Origin: Rhodobacterales bacterium
GTDB taxonomy: Bacteria; Pseudomonadota; Alphaproteobacteria; Rhodobacterales; Rhodobacteraceae
Assembly: GCA_038211355.1 (NCBI GenBank)
Contig: JBBQVR010000001.1
Location: forward strand, 491-64,490
Direction of reading: 5' to 3'
Length of the DNA stretch: 64,000 nt
Shown: positions 8,008 to 29,326 of the stretch, one piece after another
How positions within the stretch are numbered: the first letter of the stretch is position 1
Layout of the letters: every line of letters begins with the position of its first letter
Program-made: the position numbers and the translations under genes
The notes under the pieces: model-generated
Seen by the model: the letters and a program-made list of their open reading frames with translations, nothing else
Database searches by the model: none
Told to the model about the DNA's origin: nothing

Positions 8008-10074
8008 TCAGTTCCGAGCGACTGTCCGCAATTCCAGTTGCAGGATGATGGGGCTGGGGCCGGTGTCATCGCCTTCCTCCGTCAGCCCAATTGCGCCGCG
8101 CGTGGTCTGGCCGAAACCAGCCTCGGCCAGCGCGTCGCCAAAGGCGGAACCGCCCAGGCTGCGGGTGGTGTCCAGCGCGTCTTGCGCAAGGTAGCCAAGA
8201 TCCTCAACCGGGCTTTGCGGTTTGGCGGGCGTCACGACGACCAGCATCCGTTCCTGCCCAAGGACCGTATCGGTGATCTTGAAGAGGCCCTTTTTCAATT
8301 CATCCCCCGGCTGCAGGCGGCCCGAAAACCAGTGGCTGATCGCATAATCCGCCGCGATGTAAAGGACGTTCACGTCAACCGGCCAGTCCGTGTTGTTGCG
8401 GGCAAGGACATGCACCTCGTCCTCGGGCAGCAGGGTGGGGACCGGTGCGAAGGGCAAGGCGCGTAGCGTGCGGTCTTCGGGCGTGCGGGTCTGCAGCGCA
8501 ACTGACACATCCAGCCCTTCGGACCCCACGGCAGCGCCGAGTTTCAGCAGGTTCTGCGCGCGGGCGATGGTGGTCAAAGTGTCGGCCAGGGTCGTGGCCA
8601 GCGTCGCGCCATCCTTGTCGGTGGCAAGGACGGACGGGGTGGTGCCAAGGTCTTCGGCCAGACCGGTTGCGGGCAAGACCCAGATTGCATCGGGGCGCGG
8701 GCTGTCGGGCAGGACGGCAAGGCGAAGGTCGGCCTCAACGCTTGCGTCAACGAAGATCAGCCGGGGACCTGCGGCTTCGGTCAGCGCCACCAGTGCCGTC
8801 AGCAGCTTGTCGGCGGGCGCGCTTCCCGGGGCGGGCAGGGCCACCGTCAGGGTGAAATCCAGCGCCTCATCCAGCTTGCGCAGGGTCATGCCCTTGGGCA
8901 GGTCGGCGGGAAGGGTCTTGCCGTCGCGCACCACAGGCCGGCCGGTGGCGGCGAAGGTGCCGACCGTGGTCAGTTCCACATATCCCAGCGCGGCATCGGT
9001 CGGATCGGCGGCACTTGCCAAGACGGCCATCACCGCGCCGGTCGCAAGGCCATGCAGCGACCCCGCGGCGATGGTCAGGCCCGCGTCAGTCACGTCAGCC
9101 TGCCACTGGGCGACGCGGGTGCCGGGGCTGGCCCCGAACACCACCTGATCAAGATCGCCCTCAAACAGCGGGGTAGAGCGGGCGAGGTTCCTGACCGAAT
9201 AGCGGCGCAGCACCTCTTGCCCGATCTGGCCATAGGTCGCACCGGGGTATTCGGCCAGCACCTCCATCAGGGTGAAGGTAAAGACGCCCTGCGGCTTGCG
9301 GCCCGGTTTGCCCTTGGGCAGGTTCTTTTCGGGGGTCACCTCGTTCGTCTGCGCGGCGAAGAAGGCGACAAAGCTGCCCTCACCCGCGCCGGCGTCAAAC
9401 GGTGCTTCGACCCCCTCGCGCGGATCACCCAGCGACCGGGTGGTCACAGCCTCCATCGCCATGGGATCAATCCCCAAAGCCTCGGGCGGGATCTGGCGGG
9501 TGCGCACATCTTCATCTGCCCCATCAAGGCTCCGGGTGGCGGTGCCGGAATGGCAGCTGTCGAACACCGCCCAGACATTGGCCCCCTTGGCGCGCAGGCC
9601 GTCGATCAGGGTGCCGATCTCATCATCGACCAGCGCGTTTTCCACCGTGCCCACGCCGTCTGACCAGGTGCCGATATCGACCGGCAGGAACAGCTCATCC
9701 AAGCCATCCAGTTCGGACGTGGGGTCAAGGGCCGGGGCCTGCGTGCCGTGGCCGGAAAAGTGGAGATAGACGAAATCACCGGGCTGGACCCGCGCAGTCA
9801 GATCGGCAAAGGCCGTGCGGATCGCGGCAAGCGTGGGGGCCTGATACCCCGCAACGCCATCGGTCAGGATGGTCAGATTTTCCGCGGCAAAGGGCACCGG
9901 CGCGCTGGTGGTCAGGTAGCCCGCGACCAGCTGCACATCATTGGCGGGGCCTTTCAGCCACCAGCGCTCCTCCAGGTTCTGGTATTGGTTCGCGCCGATC
10001 AGGATGGCGTGGTTTTCCGCCAACGCCGGAAAGGCGGCCGTCATCACGGCGAGGGTGAGGGCGCTGCGCCACAT
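8008..10074 (-). CDS. Secreted caspase-family (peptidase C14, metacaspase/orthocaspase type) protein with C-terminal DUF4384-like domain
   Basis: Signal peptide (FPALA|E); LKGPANDV, HFSGHG (His), FDSCHSG (Cys); C-terminal RNNTDWPVDVNVLYIAAD...GQERMLVVVT resembles DUF4384. Confidence 0.88.
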   Translation of the reverse strand: MWRSALTLAVMTAAFPALAENHAILIGANQYQNLEERWWLKGPANDVQLVAGYLTTSAPVPFAAENLTILTDGVAGYQAPTLAAIRTAFADLTARVQPGDFVYLHFSGHGTQAPALDPTSELDGLDELFLPVDIGTWSDGVGTVENALVDDEIGTLIDGLRAKGANVWAVFDSCHSGTATRSLDGADEDVRTRQIPPEALGIDPMAMEAVTTRSLGDPREGVEAPFDAGAGEGSFVAFFAAQTNEVTPEKNLPKGKPGRKPQGVFTFTLMEVLAEYPGATYGQIGQEVLRRYSVRNLARSTPLFEGDLDQVVFGASPGTRVAQWQADVTDAGLTIAAGSLHGLATGAVMAVLASAADPTDAALGYVELTTVGTFAATGRPVVRDGKTLPADLPKGMTLRKLDEALDFTLTVALPAPGSAPADKLLTALVALTEAAGPRLIFVDASVEADLRLAVLPDSPRPDAIWVLPATGLAEDLGTTPSVLATDKDGATLATTLADTLTTIARAQNLLKLGAAVGSEGLDVSVALQTRTPEDRTLRALPFAPVPTLLPEDEVHVLARNNTDWPVDVNVLYIAADYAISHWFSGRLQPGDELKKGLFKITDTVLGQERMLVVVTPAKPQSPVEDLGYLAQDALDTTRSLGGSAFGDALAEAGFGQTTRGAIGLTEEGDDTGPSPIILQLELRTVARN

Positions 10075-10697
10075 CAGTTTGTCATCAACGCATAGGTGGC
10101 CGCAGCGGGCCCCTTGTTGTCAACTTTCAGCGTGAAGGTCCCGCCAGCCGCCGGGGTCCAGCCGCAATAGGCGATGTGGCTGATGTCGGTATCGGTGCAG
10201 ACCAGACGGCCCTTGTCGTCAAGCACGGTCAGGTTGACGTTGGTGGCGGCCTTCGCCTCGACGTAAACCTCGGCGTATTCACCGCCGCGAAACTCAATCG
10301 GGGGGTAGGTGTCGTTGCCGCCGTTCGCCAGCGCCCCGATGTTGTAGACCGGGCCAGAGGCGACGCCCTTGGTCGTTTCAACTGCGATATCCTCGATCAG
10401 ACCCAGCAGGGTGGCATCGTCTGCGGCAAGCGCCTCGGCGGTGGCAAGCATCTCTTGCCAAGTGAGGGGGGCGCCCTCGGTGGGCTGGCCACCCAAGGGC
10501 AGACGGTCGCCCGCAACCGGGGCCAGCGATTTGCGCAGCCGGGCGGCCGACAGGATCAAAACGGGGTCAGCCGCCGCGACGCCGGTGTCATAAAGCCGCG
10601 CGGAAAGGGCGGCCACTTGCACGGGCGAGGCCGTCTCAGCCCCGGCGCTGGAGGCAAGGGCCAGGGCAAAGCTGGCGGCAAGCAGGGATCGGCGCAT
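10074..10697 (-). CDS. Secreted hypothetical protein, paralog A (helical N-domain plus PPC-like beta-sandwich)
   Basis: Signal peptide (SAGA|E); stop overlaps caspase start (TGATG); aligns by eye with 19121-19942 and 20066-20755. Confidence 0.8.
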   Translation of the reverse strand: MRRSLLAASFALALASSAGAETASPVQVAALSARLYDTGVAAADPVLILSAARLRKSLAPVAGDRLPLGGQPTEGAPLTWQEMLATAEALAADDATLLGLIEDIAVETTKGVASGPVYNIGALANGGNDTYPPIEFRGGEYAEVYVEAKAATNVNLTVLDDKGRLVCTDTDISHIAYCGWTPAAGGTFTLKVDNKGPAAATYALMTN

Positions 10698-10773
10698 CGG
10701 AAAACTCACACAAGGGATTGTCTTGCCGGTGACCATGCGTCCGGGTGCTTCGGCTGTAAATGCTGGAATTTTT

Positions 10774-10792
10774 CATGACGGGCTTTGTCATG
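10774..10792. promoter_or_regulatory. Putative regulator site 1, CATGAC-N7-GTCATG (minus strand TGACAAA-GCCC-GTCA)
   Basis: Inverted repeat in the divergent intergenic region; same motif at 15758 and 20044. Confidence 0.6.
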
Positions 10793-10851
10793 TGCCAAGG
10801 CTTTGGGCCGCTGTTAGCAAGGCGGCAAGCAGGCAGGAACAAAGGTGCACG

Positions 10852-12195
10852 ATGCAGACGGGACAAAAGGAAAGGCGCGGGCAACGGCGCATCTGGCCAC
10901 AGCGATATCTGGGTGAGGTGCTGGCCGCGCTGGTCGTGATCGTGCTGGTGGCGCTGGTCGGGCCGGCCAATGCCACCCCGCTTGATGATGCGATGGACCG
11001 CGTCTTCACGGTGCGCAGTGCCGACGCCGAGGACAGGTTTCTGGGGTCGGCCTTCCTGTGGGGTGCGGGGGACGTTGCCGTGACCAACGCCCATGTGGTC
11101 GGCACCGCAGGCGAGGTGCGTCTGGTGGGCCGCCACGGGGCAGAGGAAACCGCGCTGGTCATCGCGCGCGATGCGCTGCGCGATGTGGCAGTGATCGCGG
11201 TCAGCGCAAGGTTTGCCGGTGGCCGGGCCGGGCTGGACCTTGTGACCACGTCCCCCGGTCTGGGCGATGAGGTCTTTGCCCTTGGCGCACCGCTTGGGGT
11301 GGAATTCACCCTGACCGAGGGCCGGATTTCCGCCACCGCGCGGCAGGTGGACATCACCGTGCCGTTGCTGATGCTGCAGCATGATGCGGCGGTCAATCCG
11401 GGGTCTTCGGGCGGGCCTCTGGTCGATGCTGACGGGCGGCTTTTGGGGATGAACAGCCAGATCGCCGATGGCAGCCGGATGTTTGTCGGCATCGCCTATG
11501 CCATCGCGGCGCCTGACCTTGCGGCCTTCGTCACCGGCCTGATCGAGGAAACCCTGCCGCCGTTCCCGTCGCTTGGCGTGACCGCGCGACCGGTGGACCG
11601 GCAGGTGGCGGCAGCGCTGGGTGTTGCGGTGGCGGGATTGCTGGTCGACGGGGTGACCGCGGGCGGGCTGGCCGAGGCGGCGGGTCTGCGCGGTGGCGAT
11701 GTGATCGTGGCGGTGGACGGGACTGCGCTGGTGCAACCGGGCGATCTGGCCTTTGCGGTGGAACGGGCGGCTGTGGCGGGTGAAACGCTGATCACCGTGT
11801 TGCGGGGCGGGGCGCAGCTGAACCTGACCGTGTCGCTTTTGGCCGAGGAGGCTGGCCTGCGCCTGCGGCAGGTGTCGGGGGGCATGCCGGAAACGGTGCA
11901 GGCCTACCGGCTGGCAGCCCTTGGCGTGGTGCTGGACGCTGCGGGCCGGGTGACGGCGGTCACCGAAAGCTCGCCCGCCCTGTTCGCCGGGCTGGCGCTG
12001 GGTGACCGCATCCTGACGGTGAACGGCGCAGAGGTGGACCTGTCGGCCTATGAGGTGACCGAGCCGGTGTTGCTGCTGGTGCAGGCCCCGGGCGGTTTGA
12101 CGCGGCACATCCATCTGGACCCCTGGCGCGCGCAAGGCGGGGTGCGGCCTCTGGGCGGGGCGAATGTCCTTGACCCGGACGTGGTGGTGTTCTGA
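10852..12195 (+). CDS. HtrA/DegP-like serine protease with PDZ domain(s)
   Basis: VTNAHVV (His), RDVAVI (Asp), DAAVNPGSSGGPL (Ser); PDZ-like GLRGGDVIVAVDG; N-terminal hydrophobic segment. Start uncertain (10852 or GTG 10918). Confidence 0.88.
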   Translation: MQTGQKERRGQRRIWPQRYLGEVLAALVVIVLVALVGPANATPLDDAMDRVFTVRSADAEDRFLGSAFLWGAGDVAVTNAHVVGTAGEVRLVGRHGAEETALVIARDALRDVAVIAVSARFAGGRAGLDLVTTSPGLGDEVFALGAPLGVEFTLTEGRISATARQVDITVPLLMLQHDAAVNPGSSGGPLVDADGRLLGMNSQIADGSRMFVGIAYAIAAPDLAAFVTGLIEETLPPFPSLGVTARPVDRQVAAALGVAVAGLLVDGVTAGGLAEAAGLRGGDVIVAVDGTALVQPGDLAFAVERAAVAGETLITVLRGGAQLNLTVSLLAEEAGLRLRQVSGGMPETVQAYRLAALGVVLDAAGRVTAVTESSPALFAGLALGDRILTVNGAEVDLSAYEVTEPVLLLVQAPGGLTRHIHLDPWRAQGGVRPLGGANVLDPDVVVF

Positions 12196-12221
12196 ATGAG
12201 GGGCCAAGGGAAGGTGGGGGC

Positions 12222-12926
12222 ATGAACGACCGGATCCTGATCGTCGAAGACGATAGTGAGACTGCCGCCGCCGTGCGTGCGGTGGTCGAGGGGTTGGGCT
12301 GCCACGTCGACCATCACGACACGCTTGAGGCCGGCATCGCCGCTGCCATCGCCACGCCCTACAAGGTCATCGTGCTGGACCGGATGCTGCCGGGCGGCGA
12401 CGGGGTCGAGGCGATGGCACGGTTGCGGGCCGGTGGGTCAACCGCGCTGATCCTGATCCTGTCGGCGCTGGGTCGCGCCGCCAACCGGGTGGAGGGGCTG
12501 GAAAAGGGTGCGGATGACTATCTGCCGAAACCCTTTGAACCCGATGAGTTGCGCGCCCGCGTGCGCGCCCTGTTGCGACGCGGCACGATGCAGGTGCTGG
12601 ACAATGACCTTCTGGCCTTCGGTGATCTGGAAATCCGGCTGAAGGCGCGGACGGTGCATGTCAAACGCGCCCATGTGGCGGTCAGCCCGAAAGAGTTTGA
12701 GCTGTTGACCTATTTTGCCAGCAACGCCGGGCAGATCGTCACCCGGATGCAGCTTTTGGAAAACGTCTGGAACCTGCACTTCGACCCCGGCACCAATGTG
12801 GTTGATGTCCATGTCGGCCGCCTGCGCCGCAAGCTGGAAGAAGCAGGCTCCACCGCGATCCAGACCGCGCGGGGGGAGGGGTATGTCTTTGCCCCGCTTG
12901 CCCCGACTTTGGGGCCCGCCGGGTGA
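12222..12926 (+). CDS. OmpR-family response regulator (CusR/CopR-like C-terminus)
   Basis: ILIVEDD, VIVLD (phosphoacceptor), DDYLPKPF; wHTH LLENVWNLHFDPGTNVVDVHVGRLRRKL. Confidence 0.93.
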   Translation: MNDRILIVEDDSETAAAVRAVVEGLGCHVDHHDTLEAGIAAAIATPYKVIVLDRMLPGGDGVEAMARLRAGGSTALILILSALGRAANRVEGLEKGADDYLPKPFEPDELRARVRALLRRGTMQVLDNDLLAFGDLEIRLKARTVHVKRAHVAVSPKEFELLTYFASNAGQIVTRMQLLENVWNLHFDPGTNVVDVHVGRLRRKLEEAGSTAIQTARGEGYVFAPLAPTLGPAG

Positions 12927-14284
12927 CACAGGCCCGCCCCCTGGCGGCGCGGGCCACGTTGCGGCTGGCGGCGGTGATGGCCCTTGCGGTAACGGTTCTG
13001 TCGCTTCTGGCGATGGGGTTGCAATATCGGCTGGTCGAGGTGCGGCTGATGCAAGCGCAGCGCGCGCTTTTGTCAGCCGACCTGGACGGGTTCGCAGCCC
13101 TTTATGACCAGCGCCGGATCATCGCCCTGCGGCAGGCCATCGACTACCGTGCGGCGGCGGCGACGGGCGAAGAGATGCTGCTGTTGCTGGACCGTAGCGG
13201 CGCCAAGCTGGCTGGCACGCGCGCCGGCTGGCCGGCCGGCCTTACCGCCGAGGGGGATGCCTTCACCGTCGAACCCGCAACGGTGTTTGTGGAAGGCGGC
13301 ACACGCTGGCTGGTTGTGGCGCGCAAACTGCCGGGGGGGTTTCCGCTGCTTGTCGCACGATCGCTTGACCCGGTTGATGACACGCTGGCGGCCCTGCGGC
13401 GCGGGATGCTGGGACTGCTCGCCGCGCTGCTGGTGGCGGGGGGTGGGGTCGGCTGGCTGGCGGCGCGGTCGGTCATGGGCCGGATCGGGCGGGTGAATGA
13501 TCTGGCCGACCGCGTGGCCGAAGGGGCGCTGGACGCGCGGCTGCCGGGGGCGCGGTCTGACGATGAGTTCGGCCTGTTGGAAACCCACGTCCACGCCATG
13601 CTGGACCGTATTCAGAACCTGAACCGCGCCACGCACCGCCTGTCCGACACCATCGCGCATGAATTGCGCACACCGCTGAACCGGATGCTGCAAAAGCTGG
13701 GCCGGATCGAGGATCACGAAGAGGTCACGGCCGAGTTGAAGGCCGAGATGCGGCAAGCGATCCGCATGTTTGACAGCCTTCTGGACATCAGCCGCGCCGA
13801 GGCTGACGCAGGCACCGGCGGCGGTCTGGTGCCGGTTGACCTGTCTGCCGTGGCATCGGAAGTGTGGGAGTTGTATGAGCCCTTGGCCGAGGACAAGGGG
13901 CTTGCCTGCACCTCTGACATTGCCCCCGGCCTGCAGATCCTGGGTGACCGCAACCTGATTGCGCAGCTTTTGGCCAACCTTCTGGACAACGCCATCAAGT
14001 ATTGCGCGGCGGGTGACCTGCTTACCCTGACGCTGGTCGTCTTTGGCGACCGGCACCTGATGCGGGTATCGGACACCGGCCCCGGCCTGCCCGCCGAGAT
14101 GCGCGGCGAGGCGTTTGAGCGTTTCGTCCGGGCCGAGCGTGACCGGTCCACCCCCGGCCATGGCCTTGGTCTTGCCCTGGTGCGGGCCATTGCCGCCCGG
14201 CATGGCGCGCGGCTGGTGCTGCCTGACGGTGCTGGCGGATTCACGCTTGAAATCCACTGGCCCAGGCTGCAGCAATCGGACTGA
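12923..14284 (+). CDS. Sensor histidine kinase (2 TM, periplasmic domain, HAMP)
   Basis: H-box IAHELRTPL, N-box LLDNAIKY, G1 VSDTGPG, G2 GHGLGL; GTGA overlap with the regulator. Confidence 0.93.
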   Translation: MTQARPLAARATLRLAAVMALAVTVLSLLAMGLQYRLVEVRLMQAQRALLSADLDGFAALYDQRRIIALRQAIDYRAAAATGEEMLLLLDRSGAKLAGTRAGWPAGLTAEGDAFTVEPATVFVEGGTRWLVVARKLPGGFPLLVARSLDPVDDTLAALRRGMLGLLAALLVAGGGVGWLAARSVMGRIGRVNDLADRVAEGALDARLPGARSDDEFGLLETHVHAMLDRIQNLNRATHRLSDTIAHELRTPLNRMLQKLGRIEDHEEVTAELKAEMRQAIRMFDSLLDISRAEADAGTGGGLVPVDLSAVASEVWELYEPLAEDKGLACTSDIAPGLQILGDRNLIAQLLANLLDNAIKYCAAGDLLTLTLVVFGDRHLMRVSDTGPGLPAEMRGEAFERFVRAERDRSTPGHGLGLALVRAIAARHGARLVLPDGAGGFTLEIHWPRLQQSD

Positions 14285-14305
14285 CCCTCTCATTCCGGAC
14301 CCTGC

Positions 14306-15748
14306 ATGAAACGCGCTGTCCTTCCCCTGCTGTTGCTTCTGGGCTGCGCGCCGTGGAATTCGCCGCTGAACCAGCCGTTGCAGGGGGAAAACGCCAGTCT
14401 GGTTGAACCGGCGGTCGTGGGCGATGGAGAGCTTTACATCGGTCTGGCCTTTTCAGGCGGCGGGTTCCGGGCCACGTCCTTCGCCTACGGTATGCTTGAG
14501 GAATTGCGCGCGGCGGGGGTGGAAACCGGCACGCCGAACGGCCTGCTTGATCAGGTGCGGCTGGTGTCGGGTGTCTCTGGCGGGTCGGTGATGGCGGCGC
14601 AGTTTGGCTTGCGTGGGCCAGAGGGGCTGACCGGGTTCCGGGAGAAGTTCCTTCTGACCGACGGTGAGGCCTATATGGTCACCTCAGGCCTGAACCCCTT
14701 GACCATCGCCAAGGGCGTGGCGGGCGGGGTGAACGGGCGCGATACCTTTGGCCGCTATCTGGATGATACGCTGTTCAACGGCGCCACCTTCGGCGATCTG
14801 CGCAAATCCTCACGCATCAAGACCTGGATCAACGCCACCGACATGGCGAACAACACGCCGTTTCTGTTCAGCCCCGAGACGTTTGATGCGCTGTGTTCCG
14901 ACCTGTCGCAGGTGCGCCTGTCCGAGGCGGTGGCTGCCAGCGCCGCCTTCCCGCTTGTCTTCACCCCCATCGTGCTGAAGGCGCATCAGGGCAAGTGCAA
15001 CTACGTTGAGCCCGACTGGCTGACAGCCGCGCGCTATAACCCCGAGGCGACGGCCGCAATGCGCGCCCATGCCCGCGCGCTGGAAAGCTATACCAACCCA
15101 GATGAGGTGAAGTTCGTCAAACTGCTGGATGGCGGGATCACCGACAACTTCGGCACGACAGGTCTTGCGGTAGAGCGCGCCCGCGCGCAGGTGCCCTATG
15201 CGCCGCTGACGGCGGAAGAGGCGGTCAAGCTGAAACGGATGCTGTTCCTTGTCGCCAACGCCGGGGTTGAGGAAGACTATGACTGGACGCAGCAAGTGGC
15301 CGGTCCCGGTGGGGTCAACCTTGCGATGTCGATTGCCACCAGCGCCATGTCGGCGGCGTCACGGTCTGGCTATGACTCCATGCGGGGTGAACTGCGCGTG
15401 TGGGAGGCAGAGCTGATCGACTGGCGCTGCGCCTTGCCGATGGTTGAAGTGCGCCGGTTGCGCGGATCGACCGAAGGGTGGGACTGCAAGGATGTAAAGC
15501 TGTTCGTGGGTGAGGCCAGCTTTGCCAGCCTGCCCCCGGCGCTGCGCGACAAGCTGAACAATGTGCCGACCCGTCTGAAACTGCCGCCTGCTGAGGTGGA
15601 CATGGTGATTGAAGCCGGGCGATTGGCCACCCGCATGACGCCGGAGTTCAACGGTTTCCTCGCCTCGCTGGCTGGAAATAATGTGGACGGGCGGATCGTG
15701 GACGGCATCGCCGCAGGCGGGCGGCGGGTGATGCCCTTGGGGAATTGA
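14306..15748 (+). CDS. Patatin-like phospholipase, predicted lipoprotein
   Basis: Lipobox LLG|C; SGGGFRA oxyanion loop, GVSGG nucleophile, LLDGG Asp motif. Confidence 0.88.
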   Translation: MKRAVLPLLLLLGCAPWNSPLNQPLQGENASLVEPAVVGDGELYIGLAFSGGGFRATSFAYGMLEELRAAGVETGTPNGLLDQVRLVSGVSGGSVMAAQFGLRGPEGLTGFREKFLLTDGEAYMVTSGLNPLTIAKGVAGGVNGRDTFGRYLDDTLFNGATFGDLRKSSRIKTWINATDMANNTPFLFSPETFDALCSDLSQVRLSEAVAASAAFPLVFTPIVLKAHQGKCNYVEPDWLTAARYNPEATAAMRAHARALESYTNPDEVKFVKLLDGGITDNFGTTGLAVERARAQVPYAPLTAEEAVKLKRMLFLVANAGVEEDYDWTQQVAGPGGVNLAMSIATSAMSAASRSGYDSMRGELRVWEAELIDWRCALPMVEVRRLRGSTEGWDCKDVKLFVGEASFASLPPALRDKLNNVPTRLKLPPAEVDMVIEAGRLATRMTPEFNGFLASLAGNNVDGRIVDGIAAGGRRVMPLGN

Positions 15749-15757
15749 CGGGTCAGG

Positions 15758-15772
15758 TGACAAATCCGGTTA
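15758..15772. promoter_or_regulatory. Putative regulator site 3, TGACAAA-TCCG-GTTA
   Basis: About 53 bp upstream of the caspase-2 start; one mismatch to the palindrome of sites 1 and 2. Confidence 0.5.
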
Positions 15773-15824
15773 GCTGCAGGAAGCCGCTTGTTCCATGCGG
15801 GCCCTTGGCTATCTTGGGCAGGTC

Positions 15825-17801
15825 ATGCGCAAGCCTCTGTCTGCCCTTGCGGGCCTTCTGGCCCTGATGATCGCCCCGCCCGCGCTGGCCGAGGTGCGGG
15901 CAGTGCTGGTCGGAGTCAGCGATTATCTGGTGCTGGATGCCGATCTGAAAGGCCCCGCAAACGACGTGCGCCTGATGGCCGAGACGCTTGCCTTGCGCGG
16001 CGTTGATCCCGGCGCGATGACCGTGCTGACGGCTGATCCTGCAGGCCTGCCACCCGGCGTGAAAACGGCAGCCCCGCTGCGGGCCGCGATCCTTGCGGCG
16101 ATGGCGGCGGTGGCCGATGCGTCAGCCCCCGGCGATACGGTGGTTTTCTACTTCTCCGGCCACGGCGCGCAGGCCCCGGACATGAGCGGCGACGAAGGCG
16201 GTGGCTATGATGAGATATTGCTGCCCGCCGATGCTGCCGGGTGGAGAGGCGCCATCGGCGCGGTGGAAAACGCGATTCTGGATGATGAGCTGCAGGTCTG
16301 GGCGCAAGGGATGCTGTCGCGCGGCGTGCAGGTGGTGGGGCTGATCGACGCCTGCCATTCAGCCACGGGCTTTCGCGCGGCTGGGGGCGCGGGCGTGGCG
16401 CGGGTGATTGATGCGGCGGCGCTGGGCATCCCTGCGGATGTGGTGCCGGTCACGGGCAACCCCGTGCCGCCGCTGACGGGAAGTTTCGTGTTCCTCTACT
16501 CCTCTCAATCCGATCAGCGGTCGTTTGAATACCCGATGGCGGATGGCACCTGGCAGGGAGAATTCACCTTGCGGCTGGCGCAAACCTTGCAGACCGCGCC
16601 GCAGGCCAGCTGGGCGCAGGTGCTTGCCGCCACGACCGAAGGCATGGTGCAAGGCCCCGCGCGGCAGATGCCGGATGGCGAGGGGACATTGTTGCAAGCC
16701 CCGGTTTTCGGGACCGGGCAAGCCGCGCTGCGGGTGCCGGTGGCGGGGGGCAAACTGGCGGCGGGCCTGTTTCAGGGGCTGGCGGCGGGGGCAGAGGTCG
16801 CGGTTTATGCCGATGCTGCGGGGGGGGAGGCGCTGGCTGTCCTTACCCTTGGGACAGTAAGCGCGCGTGAGGCGGTTCTGATCGGCGCACTCCCCGACGC
16901 GGCGCTTTGGGCCGAGGTGGTCAGCGCCCCGCCCCCCGCGCCGCTGGTGCTGGCGGCCCCGGTGCGGGCCGATAGGGCAGACGGGTTTGAGTATGCGGCC
17001 TGGGAAGCGGCCTTGCGTGATGGAGCCGCCACCGGCCCTTCGCCCGACCTTGTGCCGATCCTGACCGGTGGCGCGGTGGCGCTGGCCGGGGCGGACGGGG
17101 TGCTGGACCCTGAGGGGCCGGGATCTACCCCGCGGATCAGGCTGCGCGAGGGCGAGGCAGAGGCGGATGCCGTGGCGCGGGTGCTGGAGGCTGCCGCCCA
17201 TGGCCTTGGCCTGCGCGCGGTCCTTGCGGGGGCGGCGGGGCGGTCGCTGACCGGCAAGGCTGCGCTCTCCATGGTGGTTGAACGCCGGGCGGCCGGGCCG
17301 GACTGTGGCGCGGTGGGCCGGGGCGTGTCGCATGACCCGGCCCAGGGGGTTGCCCCCTGTGACCAGCTTTGGCTGACGCTGACCAACACCGGCGGCAAGG
17401 CGCAGGATGTCAGCGTGCTGTACTTCGCGGCGGATTTCAGCGTGGCCCCGATCTGGCCCGCGCAGAACCTTGCCAACCGCCTGGCACCGGGGGAAAGCAC
17501 CCGCGTCGGCCTGATGATCGAGGCGGACAGCACGGCAGGACTGGAGGAAATCTGGGTTCTGGCCGTTCCGGCAGACCCCGACACCCCCCGCGTGGACCTG
17601 ACGCGCCTTGCCACGCCGGAAACCGCGCGCGACCTTGGGGGCGCAGACCCCATGACGCAGTGGCTGGAAAGCCGCCTGCCCAAGGACGGTGGCACGACGC
17701 GCGGCTTTTCCCTGAAACCCGCCGTGTTGACGATGATCCGTCAGATGGTGCGCCTGACCCCCCCAGAGTTCTTCCCCGCCGATCCCTTGATGGAGAATTG
17801 A
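15825..17801 (+). CDS. Second secreted caspase-family (C14, metacaspase type) protein with C-terminal DUF4384-like domain
   Basis: Signal peptide (PPALA|E); LKGPANDV, YFSGHG, IDACHS; C-terminal TNTGGKAQDVSVLYFAAD...GLEEIWVLAV parallels the first caspase. Confidence 0.88.
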   Translation: MRKPLSALAGLLALMIAPPALAEVRAVLVGVSDYLVLDADLKGPANDVRLMAETLALRGVDPGAMTVLTADPAGLPPGVKTAAPLRAAILAAMAAVADASAPGDTVVFYFSGHGAQAPDMSGDEGGGYDEILLPADAAGWRGAIGAVENAILDDELQVWAQGMLSRGVQVVGLIDACHSATGFRAAGGAGVARVIDAAALGIPADVVPVTGNPVPPLTGSFVFLYSSQSDQRSFEYPMADGTWQGEFTLRLAQTLQTAPQASWAQVLAATTEGMVQGPARQMPDGEGTLLQAPVFGTGQAALRVPVAGGKLAAGLFQGLAAGAEVAVYADAAGGEALAVLTLGTVSAREAVLIGALPDAALWAEVVSAPPPAPLVLAAPVRADRADGFEYAAWEAALRDGAATGPSPDLVPILTGGAVALAGADGVLDPEGPGSTPRIRLREGEAEADAVARVLEAAAHGLGLRAVLAGAAGRSLTGKAALSMVVERRAAGPDCGAVGRGVSHDPAQGVAPCDQLWLTLTNTGGKAQDVSVLYFAADFSVAPIWPAQNLANRLAPGESTRVGLMIEADSTAGLEEIWVLAVPADPDTPRVDLTRLATPETARDLGGADPMTQWLESRLPKDGGTTRGFSLKPAVLTMIRQMVRLTPPEFFPADPLMEN

Positions 17802-17802
17802 G

Positions 17803-18861
17803 ATGACGCTTTCCCATTTGCCCAAGGCCGCGTTTCTTGCGGTGCTGCTCGCCTCAACCGCGCTGGCGGAAGAGGGGCCGGGCTTTGCTGTCAAGGCCGG
17901 CGGGGTGACGGTCTCACCCTTCGCCTACGCAAAGTCCGGGGCCAAGGCGGCGCGGGCGGCCACGGCCGAGGCGGCAGGCGCAAAGGTCATCGGCGGCGAG
18001 GTTGCGGCCGAGGGGGCCTGGCCCTGGCAGGTGGCACTGCTGGTCGGCGGGGCAGAGGTCAGCTCTGACAGCCAGTTCTGTGGCGGGTCGCTGGTCATGG
18101 ACCGCTGGGTGCTTACGGCGGCGCATTGCATCCATATGGACCAGGGGGATGGCAGCTTTGCCGATCTGGCACCGCAGGACCTGTCGATCCTGGTTGGAAC
18201 GAACGCGCTGGTGCCGGGCAGGGGGGATCTGATCCCGGTCGCGGCGATCTTTCGCCACCCGTCCTACGATGGCGCCAAGTTCGACTTTGACCTAGCGCTG
18301 GTGCAACTGGCGCGCGCGCCGAATGTGCCCTACGCGCTGATCGAGGTGCCGGACGCCGAGTTTGGCGGTCTTTTGAACCAGCAGGGGGTGACGACGATCG
18401 TCACTGGCTGGGGTCTGCAGGAAGGGGCGACCCCGTCAACCGAATTGCGGCAGGCCGAGATTCAGGTGCTGGACCGTGACCTCTGCAACGCCTCGATGCT
18501 GGAGGCGCGGGCGGAAGATGCGGCCGGCGGGTTTTCCTATGCGGCGCAGACGCTGGGCCTTGGCGAGGACGATGCCTTTGCGCTGTGGGATCAGATGGTG
18601 GCGCGCGCGCCGATGCCGGTCAGCGAGAACATGATCTGTTCCGGCACATTCGAGGGCGGCAAGACCAGCTGCAACGGCGACAGCGGCGGGCCTTTGGTGG
18701 TTCCCCTGGACGACGGCAGCTACATTCAGGCCGGGATCGTCAGCTGGGGGCTGAGCGCAAGTTCGGGTCAGGGCTGCGAGGAGACGGCGCTGTTTTCCGC
18801 CTATACCGACATTTCGAAGTTCGTGCCCTGGCTGAACGAGGTGATCGCGGCGAACCCCTGA
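17803..18861 (+). CDS. Secreted chymotrypsin-family (S1A) serine protease zymogen
   Basis: Signal peptide (TALA|E), propeptide ending AK|VIGG, WPWQVAL, CGGSL, TAAHC, DLALVQL, GDSGGP. Confidence 0.92.
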   Translation: MTLSHLPKAAFLAVLLASTALAEEGPGFAVKAGGVTVSPFAYAKSGAKAARAATAEAAGAKVIGGEVAAEGAWPWQVALLVGGAEVSSDSQFCGGSLVMDRWVLTAAHCIHMDQGDGSFADLAPQDLSILVGTNALVPGRGDLIPVAAIFRHPSYDGAKFDFDLALVQLARAPNVPYALIEVPDAEFGGLLNQQGVTTIVTGWGLQEGATPSTELRQAEIQVLDRDLCNASMLEARAEDAAGGFSYAAQTLGLGEDDAFALWDQMVARAPMPVSENMICSGTFEGGKTSCNGDSGGPLVVPLDDGSYIQAGIVSWGLSASSGQGCEETALFSAYTDISKFVPWLNEVIAANP

Positions 18862-18874
18862 GCGGTCGCCCTAT

Positions 18875-18907
18875 CCTGGCGCCGACCTGGCCCTGACCTG
18901 GCGCTGA
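18875..18907. repeat. Imperfect 11-bp tandem repeat x3
   Basis: CCTGGCGCCGA CCTGGCCCTGA CCTGGCGCTGA. Confidence 0.6.
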
Positions 18908-18950
18908 CCTTGCGGCGCCGCATTTTGCGGCACGGCCTTGCCCCCCAGCC

Positions 18951-19108
18951 GCGGCCAAAGGGGCCGCAGCCGGGGCCCCGTGGGGGCGTTTCGCCCCCAA
19001 AGGCTGCAAGCACGCTTGCAGCCTTTCCCCCGAGGATATTTGGCGAAGAGGAAGGGCAGGAAGACGGGATCTTCCTGCAGAACGGCCCGCAGCTTTGGGC
19101 TGCGAGCC
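18951..19108. repeat. Mosaic of hairpins (REP/BIME-like) between convergent genes
   Basis: GCGGCC-aaagg-GGCCGC; GGGGGCG-ttt-CGCCCCC; AAAGGCTGCAAGC-ac-GCTTGCAGCCTTT; CGCAGC-tttgg-GCTGCG. Confidence 0.6.
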
Positions 19109-19120
19109 GGGTTTGCGGTC

Positions 19121-19942
19121 TTAGTTCGTCATCAGGTGGTAGCTGTTGCGCACGCTGCCCATGTTCTGGACAGTGACGTAGAAATAGCCATCCCAAGCGG
19201 GGGTAAAGTCGCAGTAAAGCGAGTCTGACCAGCTGACATCATAGCAAAAGACGTTGCCGTTTTCATCGGTGATCGCCACGTCAAGATCGGTGTCGCCGTC
19301 GCCCACCACCGCAATTTCGCCGTAGGAATTGCCGTAGAACGGGATTTCCCAGACATCGGTCTGGCCCGCGGGCAGGCGGGACAGCCACTGCACCGCGCCG
19401 CCGATCCGCCCGCGGGAGCCTTCGGCCATCGCATCCTCGATCAGGCCAAGGATCGCCTCATCTCCGGCGGCAAGCTCGGTCGCCTTGGCGAACATCGCTT
19501 CTGCGGTCACGGGGGCGTCGGCGGCGCCTTCCTCTTCTGATGTGGCGGTAAAAAAGCTGGCCTTGGCGGCAGGGCGCATCCCGTCAGCCATCATCGGGGC
19601 CGGAGCGGCAGGGGCTGCGGAAGGGGCAACCTTTTTGCGCAAGGATTCCTGATCCCCCTCGGCGAAGGCGATGGTGGCAGGGTCGAGTGCCGCAGCCTCA
19701 GCCGTGGTGACGCTGACCGAAGCCGCGAGTTTGGCCGCGGCCAGCACGGTCAGCGCATCGCCTTGCGCAAGGCCCACGTCATAGAGGTCCTGGGCCAGGC
19801 CCATGGTCGTGGCACCCCCGGCAGCGGTGGCGGTGGCCGCGGGGTCGATGTTGGTGCCCGATTTGTCTTGTGCAAAGGCGGGAATGGCCAGCGCGACCAG
19901 TGTGGTCGTGGCCAGCGCGCGCGAAAGGGATTTCAGCGTCAT
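19121..19942 (-). CDS. Secreted hypothetical protein, paralog B (helical N-domain plus PPC-like beta-sandwich)
   Basis: Signal peptide (PAFA|Q); GDGDTDLDVAITDENGNVFC...YCDFTP...YHLMTN. Confidence 0.8.
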   Translation of the reverse strand: MTLKSLSRALATTTLVALAIPAFAQDKSGTNIDPAATATAAGGATTMGLAQDLYDVGLAQGDALTVLAAAKLAASVSVTTAEAAALDPATIAFAEGDQESLRKKVAPSAAPAAPAPMMADGMRPAAKASFFTATSEEEGAADAPVTAEAMFAKATELAAGDEAILGLIEDAMAEGSRGRIGGAVQWLSRLPAGQTDVWEIPFYGNSYGEIAVVGDGDTDLDVAITDENGNVFCYDVSWSDSLYCDFTPAWDGYFYVTVQNMGSVRNSYHLMTN

Positions 19943-20041
19943 GTCTGATCCTGTGAGATGGGAGCCCGGAACAGGGGCCCGGAATGGGAACCACGTGGAT
20001 CAACCTTGGCAGGCAGCCCGCCCTTTGAGAAGAGAGCATGG

Positions 20042-20060
20042 CGTGACAAATACCGTCATG
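20042..20060. promoter_or_regulatory. Putative regulator site 2, CGTGACAAA-TACC-GTCATG
   Basis: About 100 bp upstream of paralog B; may also act as the terminator hairpin of paralog C. Confidence 0.55.
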
Positions 20061-20065
20061 CCACC

Positions 20066-20755
20066 CTAGTTGCCGATCAGGCGGTAGCTGTTTTGCAGGC
20101 TGCCGGGGTTGTGGATGGTGGCGGTGAAAAAGTCGTTGCGGGCCGGGGTCAGCCGGCACAGGGCCGGATCAACCGACGGCGGCGTGGCGCAGACGATGTT
20201 GCCCGCCGCATCTTGCAGGGTCAGGGACAAGGGGGTGTCGCCATCGCCGATCACGCCGATCTCGGCTGTGACCTCACCAAAGAGGGGGAGGCGCCATGTA
20301 TCGGTCTGGCCGGGGCCAAGGTCGGCCTTCGCCTCGGTCGCGGTTTCGGTGGGTCCGCGCGGCAACTGTGCGTCAAGGTCATAGGCCAGGTCCTGCAAGG
20401 CGGGATCGTCGCCGACCAGGTTGCGGACGATGGCCAAGGCTGCCTCGCTGGCCGGGTCGGGGGCGGCGGTGCGGCCGGTGGGGGCGTCAGGGACCGCATC
20501 ACCGCTGGTCGTGCGCGCCCAGGCCGGGGCGGGGCGCAGGGTGACGCCGCGCGCCAGGCGAATGGCCACCAGCATGGGCAGCACCTCGCCCGAAGTCAGG
20601 GCCTGTTGCCAGGTGCGCTGCGCCAGGATCAGGCGTTGGGCCGTGCCGGGCGTGCCACCGGGGGTGGCGGACAGGTTTGCCGCCTCAGCCAGCGCGGCGG
20701 GGGCGGCAAGAAGCGTCACAAGAAGGGCGGCACCAATGGCTGGGGAGCGGATCAT
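20066..20755 (-). CDS. Secreted hypothetical protein, paralog C (helical N-domain plus PPC-like beta-sandwich)
   Basis: Signal peptide from ATG 20755 (AALA|E); GDGDTPLSLTLQDAAGNIVC...LCRLTP...YRLIGN. Confidence 0.78.
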   Translation of the reverse strand: MIRSPAIGAALLVTLLAAPAALAEAANLSATPGGTPGTAQRLILAQRTWQQALTSGEVLPMLVAIRLARGVTLRPAPAWARTTSGDAVPDAPTGRTAAPDPASEAALAIVRNLVGDDPALQDLAYDLDAQLPRGPTETATEAKADLGPGQTDTWRLPLFGEVTAEIGVIGDGDTPLSLTLQDAAGNIVCATPPSVDPALCRLTPARNDFFTATIHNPGSLQNSYRLIGN

Positions 20756-20870: not shown

Positions 20871-22019
20871 ATGCGCGACATTCTGGACCGGCTTTTGGCC
20901 TTCGACACGGTCAGCTTCAAGCCAAACATGGGGCTGATGCTTTATGTGAAGGACTTGCTGGAGGGGGCAGGCATTGCCGTGACCCTGATCCCGGATGCCG
21001 GGGGCGGGAAGGCGAACCTCTTTGCCACCGTGGGGCCACAGGGGCAGGGTGGGGTCATGCTCTCAGGCCATACCGATGTGGTGCCGGTAGAGGGGCAGAC
21101 CTGGACCAAGCCCCCCTTCGCGATGACCGAGGCTGACGGCCGCATCTACGGGCGGGGGGCGGCAGACATGAAGGGCTTCGTTGCCTGTGCGGTGGCGGCG
21201 ATGCTTGACGCCGCAAACCGGCCGTTGCGCGTGCCGCTGCATCTGGCGCTGTCTTATGACGAAGAGATTGGCTGCATGGGGGTGCGCAGTCTGATCGACA
21301 TGCTGGATGCGGCCCCGGTGCGGCCAAGGATGTGCATCGTGGGGGAACCCACGGGGATGCAGGTCGCGACCGGCCACAAGGGCAAGGTCGCGCTGCGGGC
21401 AACCTGCGTGGGGCGTGAGGGGCATTCGGCGCTGGCCCCGCTGGCCTTGAATGCGCTGCATCTGGCGGGGGATTTTCTGGTGGCGGTCAGGGGTTTGCAG
21501 GCTGAGGTGGCGGCGACGGGCCTGCGCGATGGTGACTATGACGTGCCCTATACCACGCTGCATGTCGGCAAGATGTCGGGCGGGGTGCAGGTCAATATCG
21601 TGCCCAACCACGCGAGCCTGGACTTTGAGATCCGGTCGCTGGCGGATGAGGATGTGGCGGGCCTGATCACCCGGCTGGAGGCGGCGGCGGAAGGGATCGT
21701 GGCACCACTTCGGGCAGAGTTTCCAGAGGCCGCGATCAGGGTGGAGCGCTTGTGGAATTACCCCGGCCTTGGCACGCCATCGGATGCGGGGGTGGTCAAC
21801 TTCGTCAAGGGGCTGACGGGGGCGAACGGGACGATCAAGGTGGCTTTCGGGACGGAAGGGGGCCTCTTTGACCAGCGGCTTGGCATTCCGACGGTGATCT
21901 GCGGGCCGGGGTCAATGGCGCAGGGGCACAAGCCGGATGAGTTCGTGACCGTGGAGCAGCTGGAGCGGTGCGAGGCGATGCTGGGCGCATTGATCCAGCG
22001 GCTGGAGGCGGGGTTTTAG
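20871..22019 (+). CDS. argE: Acetylornithine deacetylase (M20)
   Basis: LSGHTDVVP, YGRGAADMKG, SYDEEIGC, IVGEPT, AHKPDEF-like terminal motif. Confidence 0.85.
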   Translation: MRDILDRLLAFDTVSFKPNMGLMLYVKDLLEGAGIAVTLIPDAGGGKANLFATVGPQGQGGVMLSGHTDVVPVEGQTWTKPPFAMTEADGRIYGRGAADMKGFVACAVAAMLDAANRPLRVPLHLALSYDEEIGCMGVRSLIDMLDAAPVRPRMCIVGEPTGMQVATGHKGKVALRATCVGREGHSALAPLALNALHLAGDFLVAVRGLQAEVAATGLRDGDYDVPYTTLHVGKMSGGVQVNIVPNHASLDFEIRSLADEDVAGLITRLEAAAEGIVAPLRAEFPEAAIRVERLWNYPGLGTPSDAGVVNFVKGLTGANGTIKVAFGTEGGLFDQRLGIPTVICGPGSMAQGHKPDEFVTVEQLERCEAMLGALIQRLEAGF

Positions 22020-22020
22020 T

Positions 22021-22045
22021 GCCCACCCCACCGTCCGGGGTGGGC
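22021..22045 (+). terminator. Hairpin directly after the argE stop
   Basis: GCCCACCCC-accgtcc-GGGGTGGGC. Confidence 0.6.
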
Positions 22046-22369
22046 GGCGGGTCTGGGGGCGCTTTGGCGGGCGAGTGGGCCGCACGCCCTCGTGACTGGC
22101 CGGGATGCACCACACCAGCACAAGCCATTGCGATTGATCAAGATAACATCGCTCAGGCCCAATCGCTCAGGCCCCCGCGCGCCCCTCGACAGAACCGTTC
22201 AGACCGACACCCCAAACACTGCACGGCCAACCCCGCGGCGCGTCTGCGCCGGCGACATATCGCTTGCGGCGTGACGCGAGGCCGGAATGGCAAACGGTGC
22301 AACAGGCGCACCCCTCGCCATTCCGGCCTGCGCGGGGTAAGCCGTCGCAACCCTACGGACCTGCAGCCC

Positions 22370-24611: not shown

Positions 24612-25667
24612 CTACGCCCCGGCCAGCCCGCGCACCGCGGCCGCCACCCGCGCGGCCACCTCGGGCAGGGCTGCGGGTGACAGGTCCTCGGCCACGATCT
24701 CGACCATCGGCACCTCCATCCGCGCCCGGTGCTTGCCGTAGCGCGGGTCGTAGTGCCACTCCATCAGGCTGTCGGCCAGTGTCACGAAGGCCCCCGCCCC
24801 GGCCAGGGCCTGCCAGCCCTCGATCACCTCAGCCGGCTGCATCCGCCGCAGCATCTCGACCGTCGCTGCCAGCCGCGCCGCATCGGCCGTCAGGTCACTG
24901 TAGGCCCGCGCCAGATACGTCGCCCGCACCGTGCGAGGGGCGGCAATCGCCACGCGGGGGGCTGCGACCATCGCCTTCCAGATCTCAGGCGGCAACCGCC
25001 GCTCACCGATCTTGGAACTCTCGGCCTCAACCACCACAGGCCGTGCGGGGTCAAGGGCGGCCAAGGCCTGTGCCAAGGCCCCCTCGAACGCCTTTTGCGA
25101 CGGTTGCACCCCCACCGACCCGAACAGCGACCCCCGGTGCCGCGCCAGCCCCTCAAGGTCGATCACCTGCACGCCCAACCCCGGCAGAAGGTTCAGAACC
25201 TCGGTCTTGGCCGACCCGGTATTGCCATCCAGCACCACCACCCGCGACGCGATGGGGGTGTCATAGACCGCATCCACCACCAGCGACCGCCAGGCCTTGT
25301 AGCCGCCCGCGAGCGTCTCAACCCGCCAGCCGATCTGCGAAAGGATCGTCGCAAACGACCCCGACCGTTGCCCGCCCCGCCAGCAATAGACCAGGGGCCG
25401 CCACCCGCCGGGCTTGTCCGCCAGCGCGCCCTCAAGGTGCGCCGCTGCGTTGCGGGCCACCAGCGCCGCCCCCAGCTTGCGCGCCGTGAAGGGCGACACC
25501 TGCTTGTAGACTGTTCCGACCCGTGCCCGCTCGTCGTCGCTAAGGACTGGAAGGGATATCGCCCCCGGCAGGTGATCTTCGGCAAACTCGGCCGGGGCGC
25601 GCACGTCGATGATGTCATCAAAGCCGTGCGCGGCAAGGTCGGCCAGGGATGCAAGGGTAATCGCCAT
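24612..25667 (-). CDS. mnmH: tRNA 2-selenouridine(34) synthase
   Basis: Rhodanese IIDVRAPAEFAEDHLPGA, YCWRGGQRS; P-loop DGNTGSAKT; DLEGLARHRGS; VEAESSKIG; next to selD. Confidence 0.93.
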   Translation of the reverse strand: MAITLASLADLAAHGFDDIIDVRAPAEFAEDHLPGAISLPVLSDDERARVGTVYKQVSPFTARKLGAALVARNAAAHLEGALADKPGGWRPLVYCWRGGQRSGSFATILSQIGWRVETLAGGYKAWRSLVVDAVYDTPIASRVVVLDGNTGSAKTEVLNLLPGLGVQVIDLEGLARHRGSLFGSVGVQPSQKAFEGALAQALAALDPARPVVVEAESSKIGERRLPPEIWKAMVAAPRVAIAAPRTVRATYLARAYSDLTADAARLAATVEMLRRMQPAEVIEGWQALAGAGAFVTLADSLMEWHYDPRYGKHRARMEVPMVEIVAEDLSPAALPEVAARVAAAVRGLAGA

Positions 25668-25766
25668 CACGCGATCTTTACAGAACCCGGCGGAAAGGTG
25701 CCACCCCTTGGCAAGGCCCGGAATTCCCCTCTCGTCAGGCTGCTGTCAAAAAGGCATCATTGCCCG

Positions 25767-29264: not shown

Positions 29265-29311
29265 GGGCGATTCAGGTCTATGGCGGCTGGGGATACGGCG
29301 ACTCAGTTCCG

Positions 29312-29326
29312 GAACAAAGAAAGAAC
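29312..29326 (-). promoter_or_regulatory. Alphaproteobacterial LexA (SOS) box upstream of dnaE2
   Basis: GAAC-AAAGAAA-GAAC (GTTC-N7-GTTC on the coding strand), about 50 bp upstream of the ATG. Confidence 0.85.

Follow-up and report, generated by a model that had tools for sequence, protein, structure and literature searches.

Two predicted exported metacaspase-like proteases lie in a conserved gene cluster with a two-component system in Tabrizicola and other Alphaproteobacteria

Gene content of the locus

We analyzed a 64,000-nucleotide stretch of contig JBBQVR010000001.1 (hereafter the window) from a freshwater Tabrizicola (Paracoccaceae/Rhodobacteraceae; assembly GCA_038211355.1, 3.57 Mb in 265 contigs). 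Positions 8008-20755 of the window hold genes for two metacaspase-like cysteine proteases (casp1 and casp2), an HtrA-like serine protease, a response regulator (RR), a sensor histidine kinase (HK), a patatin-like phospholipase, a chymotrypsin-fold (S1A) zymogen, and three paralogous partner proteins, here named parA, parB, and parC (Table 1). On comparative evidence, nine of these genes, casp1, parA, htrA, RR, HK, patatin, casp2, S1A, and parB, constitute a unit with one operator, as argued by their synteny, by the confinement of the operator to the cluster, and by its retention in front of parB in genomes where parB is not linked to the other genes.

The ten open reading frames (ORFs) described in an earlier, sequence-only reading of the window were all recovered, with the codon-position G+C pattern of real genes, as were the domains, catalytic residues, export signals, and tight junctions reported for them. 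Families were assigned using Pfam gathering scores and NCBIfam curated cut-offs, and the catalytic motifs are intact in the translation of every cluster enzyme. The divergent halves casp1-parA and htrA-RR-HK-patatin-casp2-S1A are followed by parB and parC, and letter-by-letter inspection bore out the TGATG overlap between parA and casp1, the GTGA overlap between RR and HK, and the 1-bp gap between casp2 and S1A. The likely starts of htrA, parA, and casp2 are the ATG codons at 10852, 10697, and 15825, respectively. The G+C content of the window is ~66%, and the base composition of the cluster is that of the genome.

Table 1. Genes and regulatory features of the cluster, with positions numbered within the window.
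Feature	Position	Strand	Basis and remarks
casp1, exported metacaspase-like cysteine protease (predicted), 688 aa	8008..10074	-	Pfam C14 62.6 bits; AlphaFold2 model; Foldseek
parA, exported partner protein (predicted), 207 aa	10074..10697	-	Stop overlaps casp1 start (TGATG)
Operator copy 1, TGACAAAGCCCGTCA, core CATGAC-N7-GTCATG	10776..10790	-	Divergent parA/htrA promoter region
HtrA/DegP-like serine protease, 447 aa from ATG 10852	10852..12195	+	Trypsin_2; two PDZ; N-terminal signal/anchor
OmpR/PhoB-type response regulator, 234 aa	12222..12926	+	Response_reg and Trans_reg_C
Sensor histidine kinase, 453 aa	12923..14284	+	Two transmembrane segments, HAMP, HisKA, HATPase; GTGA overlap with regulator
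Patatin-like phospholipase lipoprotein, 480 aa, optional member	14306..15748	+	Lipobox LLGC; GGGFR, GVSGG, DGG
Operator copy 2, TGACAAATCCGGTTA	15758..15772	+	15 bp upstream of TTGTTC-N16-TATCTT, before casp2
casp2, second exported metacaspase-like protease (predicted), 668 aa	15795..17801	+	C14; likely start ATG 15825
S1A chymotrypsin-fold zymogen, 352 aa	17803..18861	+	Trypsin 150.8 bits; starts 1 bp past casp2 stop
Terminator-like hairpin, 10-bp stem, downstream of parB	19056..19078	-	Consensus scan only
parB, exported partner paralog (predicted), 273 aa	19121..19942	-	Linker and PPC-like jelly roll
Operator copy 3, TGACAAATACCGTCA	20044..20058	+	~100 bp upstream of parB
parC, third paralog, 229 aa	20066..20755	-	No operator; variable junction; linked to M20 peptidase gene

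Conservation of the gene block

The partner family is present in 34 of the 36 sampled genomes of the genus Tabrizicola, and the block from casp1-parA through htrA-RR-HK-patatin-casp2-S1A is contiguous and collinear in all 20 Tabrizicola loci examined. In these loci, parB-parC always lies beside the M20 peptidase gene; the block and the parB-parC group are adjacent in about half of the Tabrizicola genomes and otherwise are separated by more than 20 kb or lie on different contigs. The near-complete genomes G020 and G001 have no caspase, yet parB and parC, or parC alone, persist between the same flanking genes.

To extend the comparison, 300 genera were sampled family-wide. The paralog family occurs in 35 of them and a full-length casp1-type caspase in 23, of which 22 also have the paralog family, the exception being a contig-edge fragment in an 83%-complete genome. 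A lone paralog without a casp1-type caspase was found in 13 genera and, where examined, is located between the GFO/IDH/MocA oxidoreductase gene (u7) and the M20 peptidase gene (d1). The order of the block is kept in at least 12 named Paracoccaceae genera at 40-70% protein identity, with patatin sometimes absent; carriers include Fuscovulum blasticum, Cypionkella, Pseudorhodobacter, Pseudogemmobacter, Shimia biformata, Ruixingdingia, Oceaniglobus, Thalassobius, Thalassovita, Marinovum algicola, and Oceanicola. In other alphaproteobacterial families, caspase and paralog are again adjacent, once together with RR-HK, and Hyphomicrobiales display caspase-S1A pairs as well as a caspase-S1A-HK-RR-paralog arrangement. 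Throughout these comparisons parA adjoins casp1, except in genome G317. The genes thus recur together in kept order across genera and orders, which disposes of the objection, foreseen in the sequence-only reading, that they might not co-occur in other genomes.

Several variant loci were encountered in the same survey. In G317 (locus L171, 4289-9910), patatin-HK-RR-htrA and the divergent parA are retained with the operator and a TKGV junction, and no caspase follows parA. Oricola indica JL-62 (Hyphomicrobiales; locus L143, 9929-18362) carries a variant cluster of a 702-aa caspase, a 1012-aa TPR-CHAT protein with a signal peptide, S1A, patatin, and a paralog, which lacks both a two-component system and the operator. 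A related caspase subfamily of ~730 aa was found in eight paralog-free genera (G311, G225, G274, G082, G344, G158, G115, and G312), with ~550 of 663 profile positions matched at E values of 1e-60 to 1e-118.

A shared operator

The promoter motif pointed out by the sequence-only reading proved to be real. The pattern TGACAAA-N4-GTYA occurs three times in the window as an exact match and nowhere else in the 3.57-Mb genome (reversed control, 0), and its core is the inverted repeat (CA)TGAC-N7-GTCA(TG). The copies lie in the divergent parA/htrA region, before casp2, and ~100 bp upstream of parB, and not upstream of parC. The same three positions are conserved in many genera; at least one copy is present in 64 of the 77 loci with the two-component system, and in two Hyphomicrobiales loci the operator is situated between RR and the paralog. 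In G087, G234, G101, G108, and the split Tabrizicola genomes, where parB and the block are not linked, parB nevertheless has the operator upstream of it, and none was found upstream of the same-site paralog in the block-free genomes compared. One operator ties three promoters together and tracks the two-component system across loci, in support of the two-component control proposed earlier, and the cluster's own regulator is the predicted operator-binding protein. Confinement of the operator to cluster-bearing genomes is rejected, since 1-3 background copies exist in cluster-free ones; one copy of the pattern in cluster-free G020, TGACAAAGGCCGTCA, is identical to the site-1 type.

A sigma-70 consensus scan of the cluster promoters yielded nothing useful. 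The conserved promoter-like element TTGTTC-N16-TATCTT (window 15788-15827) ends 9 nt before the casp2 ATG at 15825, a spacing kept in other genomes, which suggests that the casp2 mRNA is leaderless or has a very short leader and that translation does not begin at the annotated ATG at 15795.

Predicted specificity of the metacaspase-like proteases and the S1A zymogen

Both caspases score well above the Pfam cut-off for Peptidase_C14 (62.6 and 69.4 bits versus 21.4), are 33% identical to each other over their entire length (E=4e-50), and have the same architecture, which in casp1 consists of a signal peptide, a C14 domain (residues 20-310), and three C-terminal domains. H109 and C174, the catalytic His-Cys dyad, are invariant among 23 homologues, as are D46 and D172. 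casp1 matches Yca1 by sequence (E=2e-15), the alignment including the Yca1 motifs LRGCIND, SGHG, and DSCHSG, with D46 and D172 aligned to the first and last of these. From the published structures of TbMCA2 and Yca1, in which LRGCIND and DSCHSG line the basic-specific pocket, we take D46 and D172 to be S1-pocket residues. The metacaspase-type residues for basic specificity thus occupy conserved positions, consistent with the Arg/Lys specificity suggested earlier, and both caspases are predicted to be Arg/Lys-specific from the pocket aspartates.

The AlphaFold2 model of casp1 (mean predicted local distance difference test score [pLDDT] 75.5) matches AtMC9, AtMC4, GSU0716, Yca1, and TbMCA2 in Foldseek searches (E=1e-13 to 1e-8). 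A disordered stretch of ~55 residues follows the catalytic Cys and carries the invariant R181 and R193, and in both caspases T-R-[GSA] motifs fall within loops of low model confidence near the C-terminus. The DUF4384 domain that had been suggested for the C-terminal halves is undetectable: from residue 330 to the end, neither caspase matches any Pfam family even at E<=10. The NCBIfam model caspase_w_EACC1 (NF047832) was not reached either (33.6 and 27.7 bits versus a cut-off of 140). Single in-frame stops occur in some caspase orthologues, namely casp2 of locus L048 (6300-8348, minus strand) and, with one TGA each, caspases of G087 and G234; these could represent decay, sequencing error, or recoding.

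The S1A gene is the sole S1A copy in a search of the genome. Its product has a signal peptide, a propeptide ending in AGAK↓VIGG (the arrow marks the activation site), the triad motifs AAHC, D, and GDSGG (GDSGGP), and Thr at position 189. All 21 orthologues have a K/R↓[VI][IV]GG activation site together with Thr or Gly at position 189, and Asp189, which confers trypsin-like specificity, is present in none of them. Because its own pocket is non-basic, the zymogen is unlikely to activate itself at K/R; the combination of site and pocket therefore suggests a requirement for a foreign Arg/Lys-specific activator, for which casp2, encoded directly upstream, would be the only candidate in the cluster.

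HtrA, the two-component pair, patatin, and export signals

The htrA product contains a Trypsin_2 domain (85.8 bits) and two PDZ stretches in Pfam, and is a divergent member of its family, falling short of the NCBIfam degP_htrA_DO cut-off (202.9 versus 416.2 bits). A second, housekeeping-type DegP-like HtrA gene is located elsewhere in the genome, the cluster gene being an extra copy. The kinase has two transmembrane segments enclosing a periplasmic loop of ~130 aa, followed by HAMP, HisKA, and HATPase_c domains. Named systems (Cpx, Bae, Pho, Cop, and others) were considered and rejected, as no NCBIfam equivalog cut-off was reached by the regulator, the kinase, or HtrA. The patatin scores 55 bits in Pfam (cut-off 27.7), and its translation contains the GGGFR oxyanion motif, GVSGG, and DGG. 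It had been cast as the membrane effector of the system; however, the clusters of Fuscovulum, Cypionkella, Pseudogemmobacter, and Shimia lack it, and, being dispensable in several genera, it is better regarded as an accessory component than as the effector.

All non-regulatory products had been described as carrying export signals, and the orthologues bear this out as a prediction. Signal-like N-termini are conserved in the orthologues of every non-regulatory protein, a lipobox is present in 22 of the 24 patatin orthologues, and a crude hydrophobicity/AxA test scored 75-100% of the export candidates as signal-like versus 0-11% of the cytoplasmic controls (RR, u4, u5, d3, and the GFO/IDH/MocA and M20 peptidase genes u7 and d1). 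Pfam annotation of the cluster and its flanks revealed no secretion-system genes within the cluster.

The partner protein family

The three paralogs are 26-38% identical, share a conserved C-terminal region of ~130 aa, and are the only three copies in the genome. None of them matches a Pfam family above its cut-off, and 644 close relatives are all called 'hypothetical' wherever the source gives a name. A profile search retrieved 2,869 clusters (50% identity) at E<=1e-3 and 1,460 at E<=1e-10. In the AlphaFold2 model, four helices make up the N-terminal part, and a linker connects them to a jelly roll of eight strands that has two conserved cysteines (pLDDT 75-89 over residues 181-272). In Foldseek searches, the jelly roll matches GOLD domains, the C-domain of the subtilase Tk-SP, the collagen-binding domains of ColH and ColG, and a collagenase PPC domain (E=1e-6 to 1e-4); in Pfam, PPC (PF04151) stays below the cut-off and is seen with parB only (14.8 versus 25.9 bits, E=0.056).

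ParA joins a helical N-domain to the PPC-like jelly roll through T/S-K-G-V, and in caspase-bearing genomes this linker is found in every ParA and (S/A/G)-R-G-R-I-G-G in every ParB. In the same-site counterparts from seven sampled genomes without a detectable C14 caspase, the K/R-Gly linker is gone (PGARIG in G020, AFAPLT in G086, TAAPEL in G166; also G162, G203, G212, and G001, which keeps parC alone). It is likewise missing from G117 (SRARRS), a genome with only a generic C14 match. The phylogenetic tree places at least two linker losses, independent of each other, on long branches within or next to the ParB clade.

The sequence-only reading had linked all three paralogs to the caspases. For ParA and ParB this link is strengthened by the decay of the K/R-Gly linker in the absence of caspases. 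It is not upheld for ParC, which has no operator, no conserved basic junction (the junction varies even among caspase-bearing genomes), and persists, linked to the M20 peptidase gene, in caspase-free genomes. On these grounds the notion of all ten genes as one unit is rejected, and parC is probably outside the regulon.

Flanking genes

The cluster is flanked by genes of ordinary metabolism, encoding an ABC transporter, FAD oxidase, MFS transporter, GFO/IDH/MocA oxidoreductase, M20 peptidase, and rhodanese. With respect to a possible mobile island, the composition is genome-like and the flanks are metabolic, yet the neighborhood of the block differs between genera. Further downstream in the window, an 861-aa ORF (21968-24553, plus strand) fuses a pyridine-nucleotide-disulphide oxidoreductase domain (residues 146-435) to AIR-synthase-related/SelD-like domains (565-853), and is adjoined by the rhodanese gene (24612-25670, minus strand). 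A 1007-aa ORF (26418-29441, minus strand) is a candidate stand-alone dnaE2 according to the sequence-only reading alone.

A possible extracytoplasmic proteolytic module and its alternatives

We give an even chance to the view that these genes specify a conserved proteolytic module that regulates itself, acts outside the cytoplasm, and has two exported metacaspase-like proteases at its center. In such a module, the kinase would use its ~130-aa periplasmic loop to sense a cue from the envelope or from outside the cell and would phosphorylate the OmpR-type regulator, which would bind the palindromic operator (CA)TGACAAA-N4-GTCA(TG) at an activator-like position and drive the promoters of parA-casp1 and htrA-RR-HK-patatin, of casp2-S1A, and of parB. 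Each metacaspase would be made together with a client, casp1 with ParA through translational coupling and casp2 with the S1A zymogen across the 1-bp gap. Cleavage would occur after K/R in exposed (T/S/A)-(K/R)-(G/S/V) sites: the S1A propeptide would be removed at K/R↓[VI][IV]GG, ParA and ParB would be cut so that the helical N-domain is split from the C-terminal PPC-like jelly roll, and the caspases would probably trim their own disordered loops. HtrA may provide dedicated quality control, and the outer-membrane-type patatin lipoprotein could be an optional co-effector. The most likely end use seems to be degradation or antagonism at the cell surface.

A more specific proposal, which we put forward tentatively and regard as possible rather than probable, is that the cluster encodes the first bacterial extracytoplasmic caspase cascade, in which metacaspase convertases switched by a two-component system would activate S1A and split the paralog pro-proteins, the freed PPC-like jelly roll serving as the effector (an adhesin, a receptor-binding module, or a polymerizing unit, for instance).

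Several observations weigh against the proteolytic module as outlined above. K/R at the activation site is the norm of the S1A family and by itself names no activator. Genome G178 keeps an RGRIG junction and has C14 genes, none of which is of the casp1 type, and G317 keeps parA-htrA-RR-HK-patatin without an adjacent caspase, its two C14 genes lying together elsewhere in the genome. None of the eight genera with a related caspase has the paralog family. As to the regulation, the operator pattern has 1-3 exact background copies in the cluster-free genomes G020, G001, and G086; OmpR-family regulators usually bind direct repeats, and, the operator being an inverted repeat, another factor could bind it. 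Finally, the conserved K/R-Gly loop suits an inhibitor's bait loop as well as it does a substrate site.

This last point leads to the main rival of the substrate reading, and the data fit both. ParA and ParB may be dedicated periplasmic inhibitors or chaperones of the metacaspases, akin to staphostatins, whose K/R-Gly bait loop keeps the proteases latent, with regulation, export, and S1A activation as in the cascade described above. parA adjoins casp1 and is translated just before it from a single message, most genera have about one paralog per caspase, and the loop is conserved only where caspases are present, all as might be expected of an inhibitor; moreover, disulfide-bonded beta-sandwiches are common among periplasmic inhibitors, and PliG is among the weak fold matches. 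The fold matches reported above, however, are PPC, collagen-binding, and GOLD domains and include no known protease inhibitors, parB has its own promoter and is often far from any caspase, and a linker between two domains is typical of a processing site. We consider the inhibitor role rather unlikely.

The remaining explanations fit less well than either the substrate or the inhibitor reading. The enzymes could be co-regulated secreted digestive hydrolases that scavenge protein and lipid independently of each other, without a cascade, the PPC-like proteins acting as substrate-binding helpers. The products are all predicted to be exported hydrolases governed by a single regulator, PPC and collagen-binding folds typify secreted degradative proteases, and many carriers belong to aquatic or alga-associated genera. 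Nevertheless, this explanation, which we judge improbable, would leave unaccounted for the fixed, translationally coupled pairs casp1-parA and casp2-S1A, an S1A zymogen that is probably unable to activate itself, and the loss of the K/R-Gly junction along with the caspases, and it sits poorly with a cluster free of secretion-system genes.

An envelope-based antiphage or programmed-lysis system, in which an envelope cue triggers the caspases and patatin destroys the membrane, is very improbable in our assessment. Caspase-like proteases and patatins do serve as effectors in known defense systems, the distribution across genera is patchy, and PADLOC reports matches to 'caspase' and a phospholipase effector. 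These matches never go beyond single domains, so membership in a known defense system is rejected, and the defense, predation, and lysis roles suggested by the sequence-only reading gain no specific support. In addition, several genera have no patatin in the cluster, the cluster lies among metabolic genes in conserved synteny rather than in a defense island, it is present in 34 of the 36 sampled genomes of the genus, and nothing connects exported enzymes to a cytoplasmic infection signal. A chance juxtaposition of unrelated secreted enzymes with an ordinary envelope-stress HtrA/two-component module, HtrA beside an OmpR-type system being a common arrangement, is scarcely credible and is contradicted by collinearity in more than 12 genera at 40-70% identity, by the recurrence of parts in another order, and by the cluster-specific operator.

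To our knowledge, the roles described for bacterial caspase homologues are mainly those of cytoplasmic proteases in death or defense, and exported forms, although noticed in surveys, have never been explained. The cluster offers a concrete, testable system with predicted clients (the S1A zymogen and two members of an unnamed family), cleavage sites, an operator, and a regulator, and with cultivable carriers, including Fuscovulum blasticum DSM 2131, Marinovum algicola FF3, Pseudorhodobacter wandonensis, and Cypionkella species. Should the cascade prove real, caspase-type proteolytic signaling would extend to the bacterial envelope, and a family of ~2,900 sequence clusters would receive its first function.

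Comparison with known systems

No published description of the cluster, the operator, or the partner family was found in the literature. The known caspase/CHAT systems (gasdermin, type III-E Craspase, and CBASS-linked) were rejected as matches, as the cluster has no gasdermin, Cas7-11, or cyclase neighbor and its products carry predicted signal peptides.

CpxAR-DegP, MprAB-PepD, and CssRS-HtrA likewise combine an OmpR-type regulator and a HAMP kinase with an adjacent HtrA-family protease. Here, in contrast, the HtrA is a supplementary copy, the operator occurs solely in this cluster and defines no broad stress regulon, and no NCBIfam equivalog cut-off is reached.

Among proteolytic cascades, that of staphylococci proceeds from aureolysin through SspA to staphopain B, with staphostatins, the secreted zymogens being activated in series. 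It resembles the proposed module in having zymogens of different catalytic classes and small co-encoded partners of cysteine proteases, but it is Gram-positive and extracellular, involves the M4, S1B, and C47 families and cytoplasmic inhibitors, and is controlled by global regulators instead of a cluster-encoded system. Gingipains (C25, clan CD) are exported Arg/Lys-specific proteases that mature type V pilins in Porphyromonas. Common to both would be cleavage of a conserved basic site in exported proteins that frees a beta-rich domain, as proposed here; gingipains differ in their dependence on the type IX secretion system and in their substrates, which are lipoprotein pilins and not PPC-like proteins, and polymerization has no support in our case.

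Fragipain (C11, clan CD) activates the Bacteroides fragilis protoxins BFT and Fab1 (PMC8406203). The likeness is that of an exported clan-CD cysteine protease maturing unrelated secreted pro-proteins, as we propose for the metacaspases; fragipain, however, belongs to family C11 rather than C14 and to another phylum, its gene lies apart from those of its substrates, and it has neither a two-component system of its own nor a partner family.

The closest relatives of the proteases themselves are the prokaryotic metacaspases/orthocaspases and their kin (MEROPS C14B; yeast Yca1, Trypanosoma brucei TbMCA2, Geobacter GSU0716, and Microcystis MaOC1), with which they have in common the fold, the His-Cys dyad, the two pocket aspartates, and the disordered post-Cys linker. 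We know of no characterized metacaspase in such a gene context and of none demonstrated to work in the periplasm. A 2012 survey reported that many bacterial metacaspases have signal-like helices at the N-terminus and that Alphaproteobacteria have operons with multiple metacaspase genes (PMC3501461). Compared with the C14B metacaspases, the cluster is distinguished by two predicted exported copies, each with ~370 extra C-terminal residues, in a fixed, regulated association with S1A, HtrA, patatin, and the partner family.

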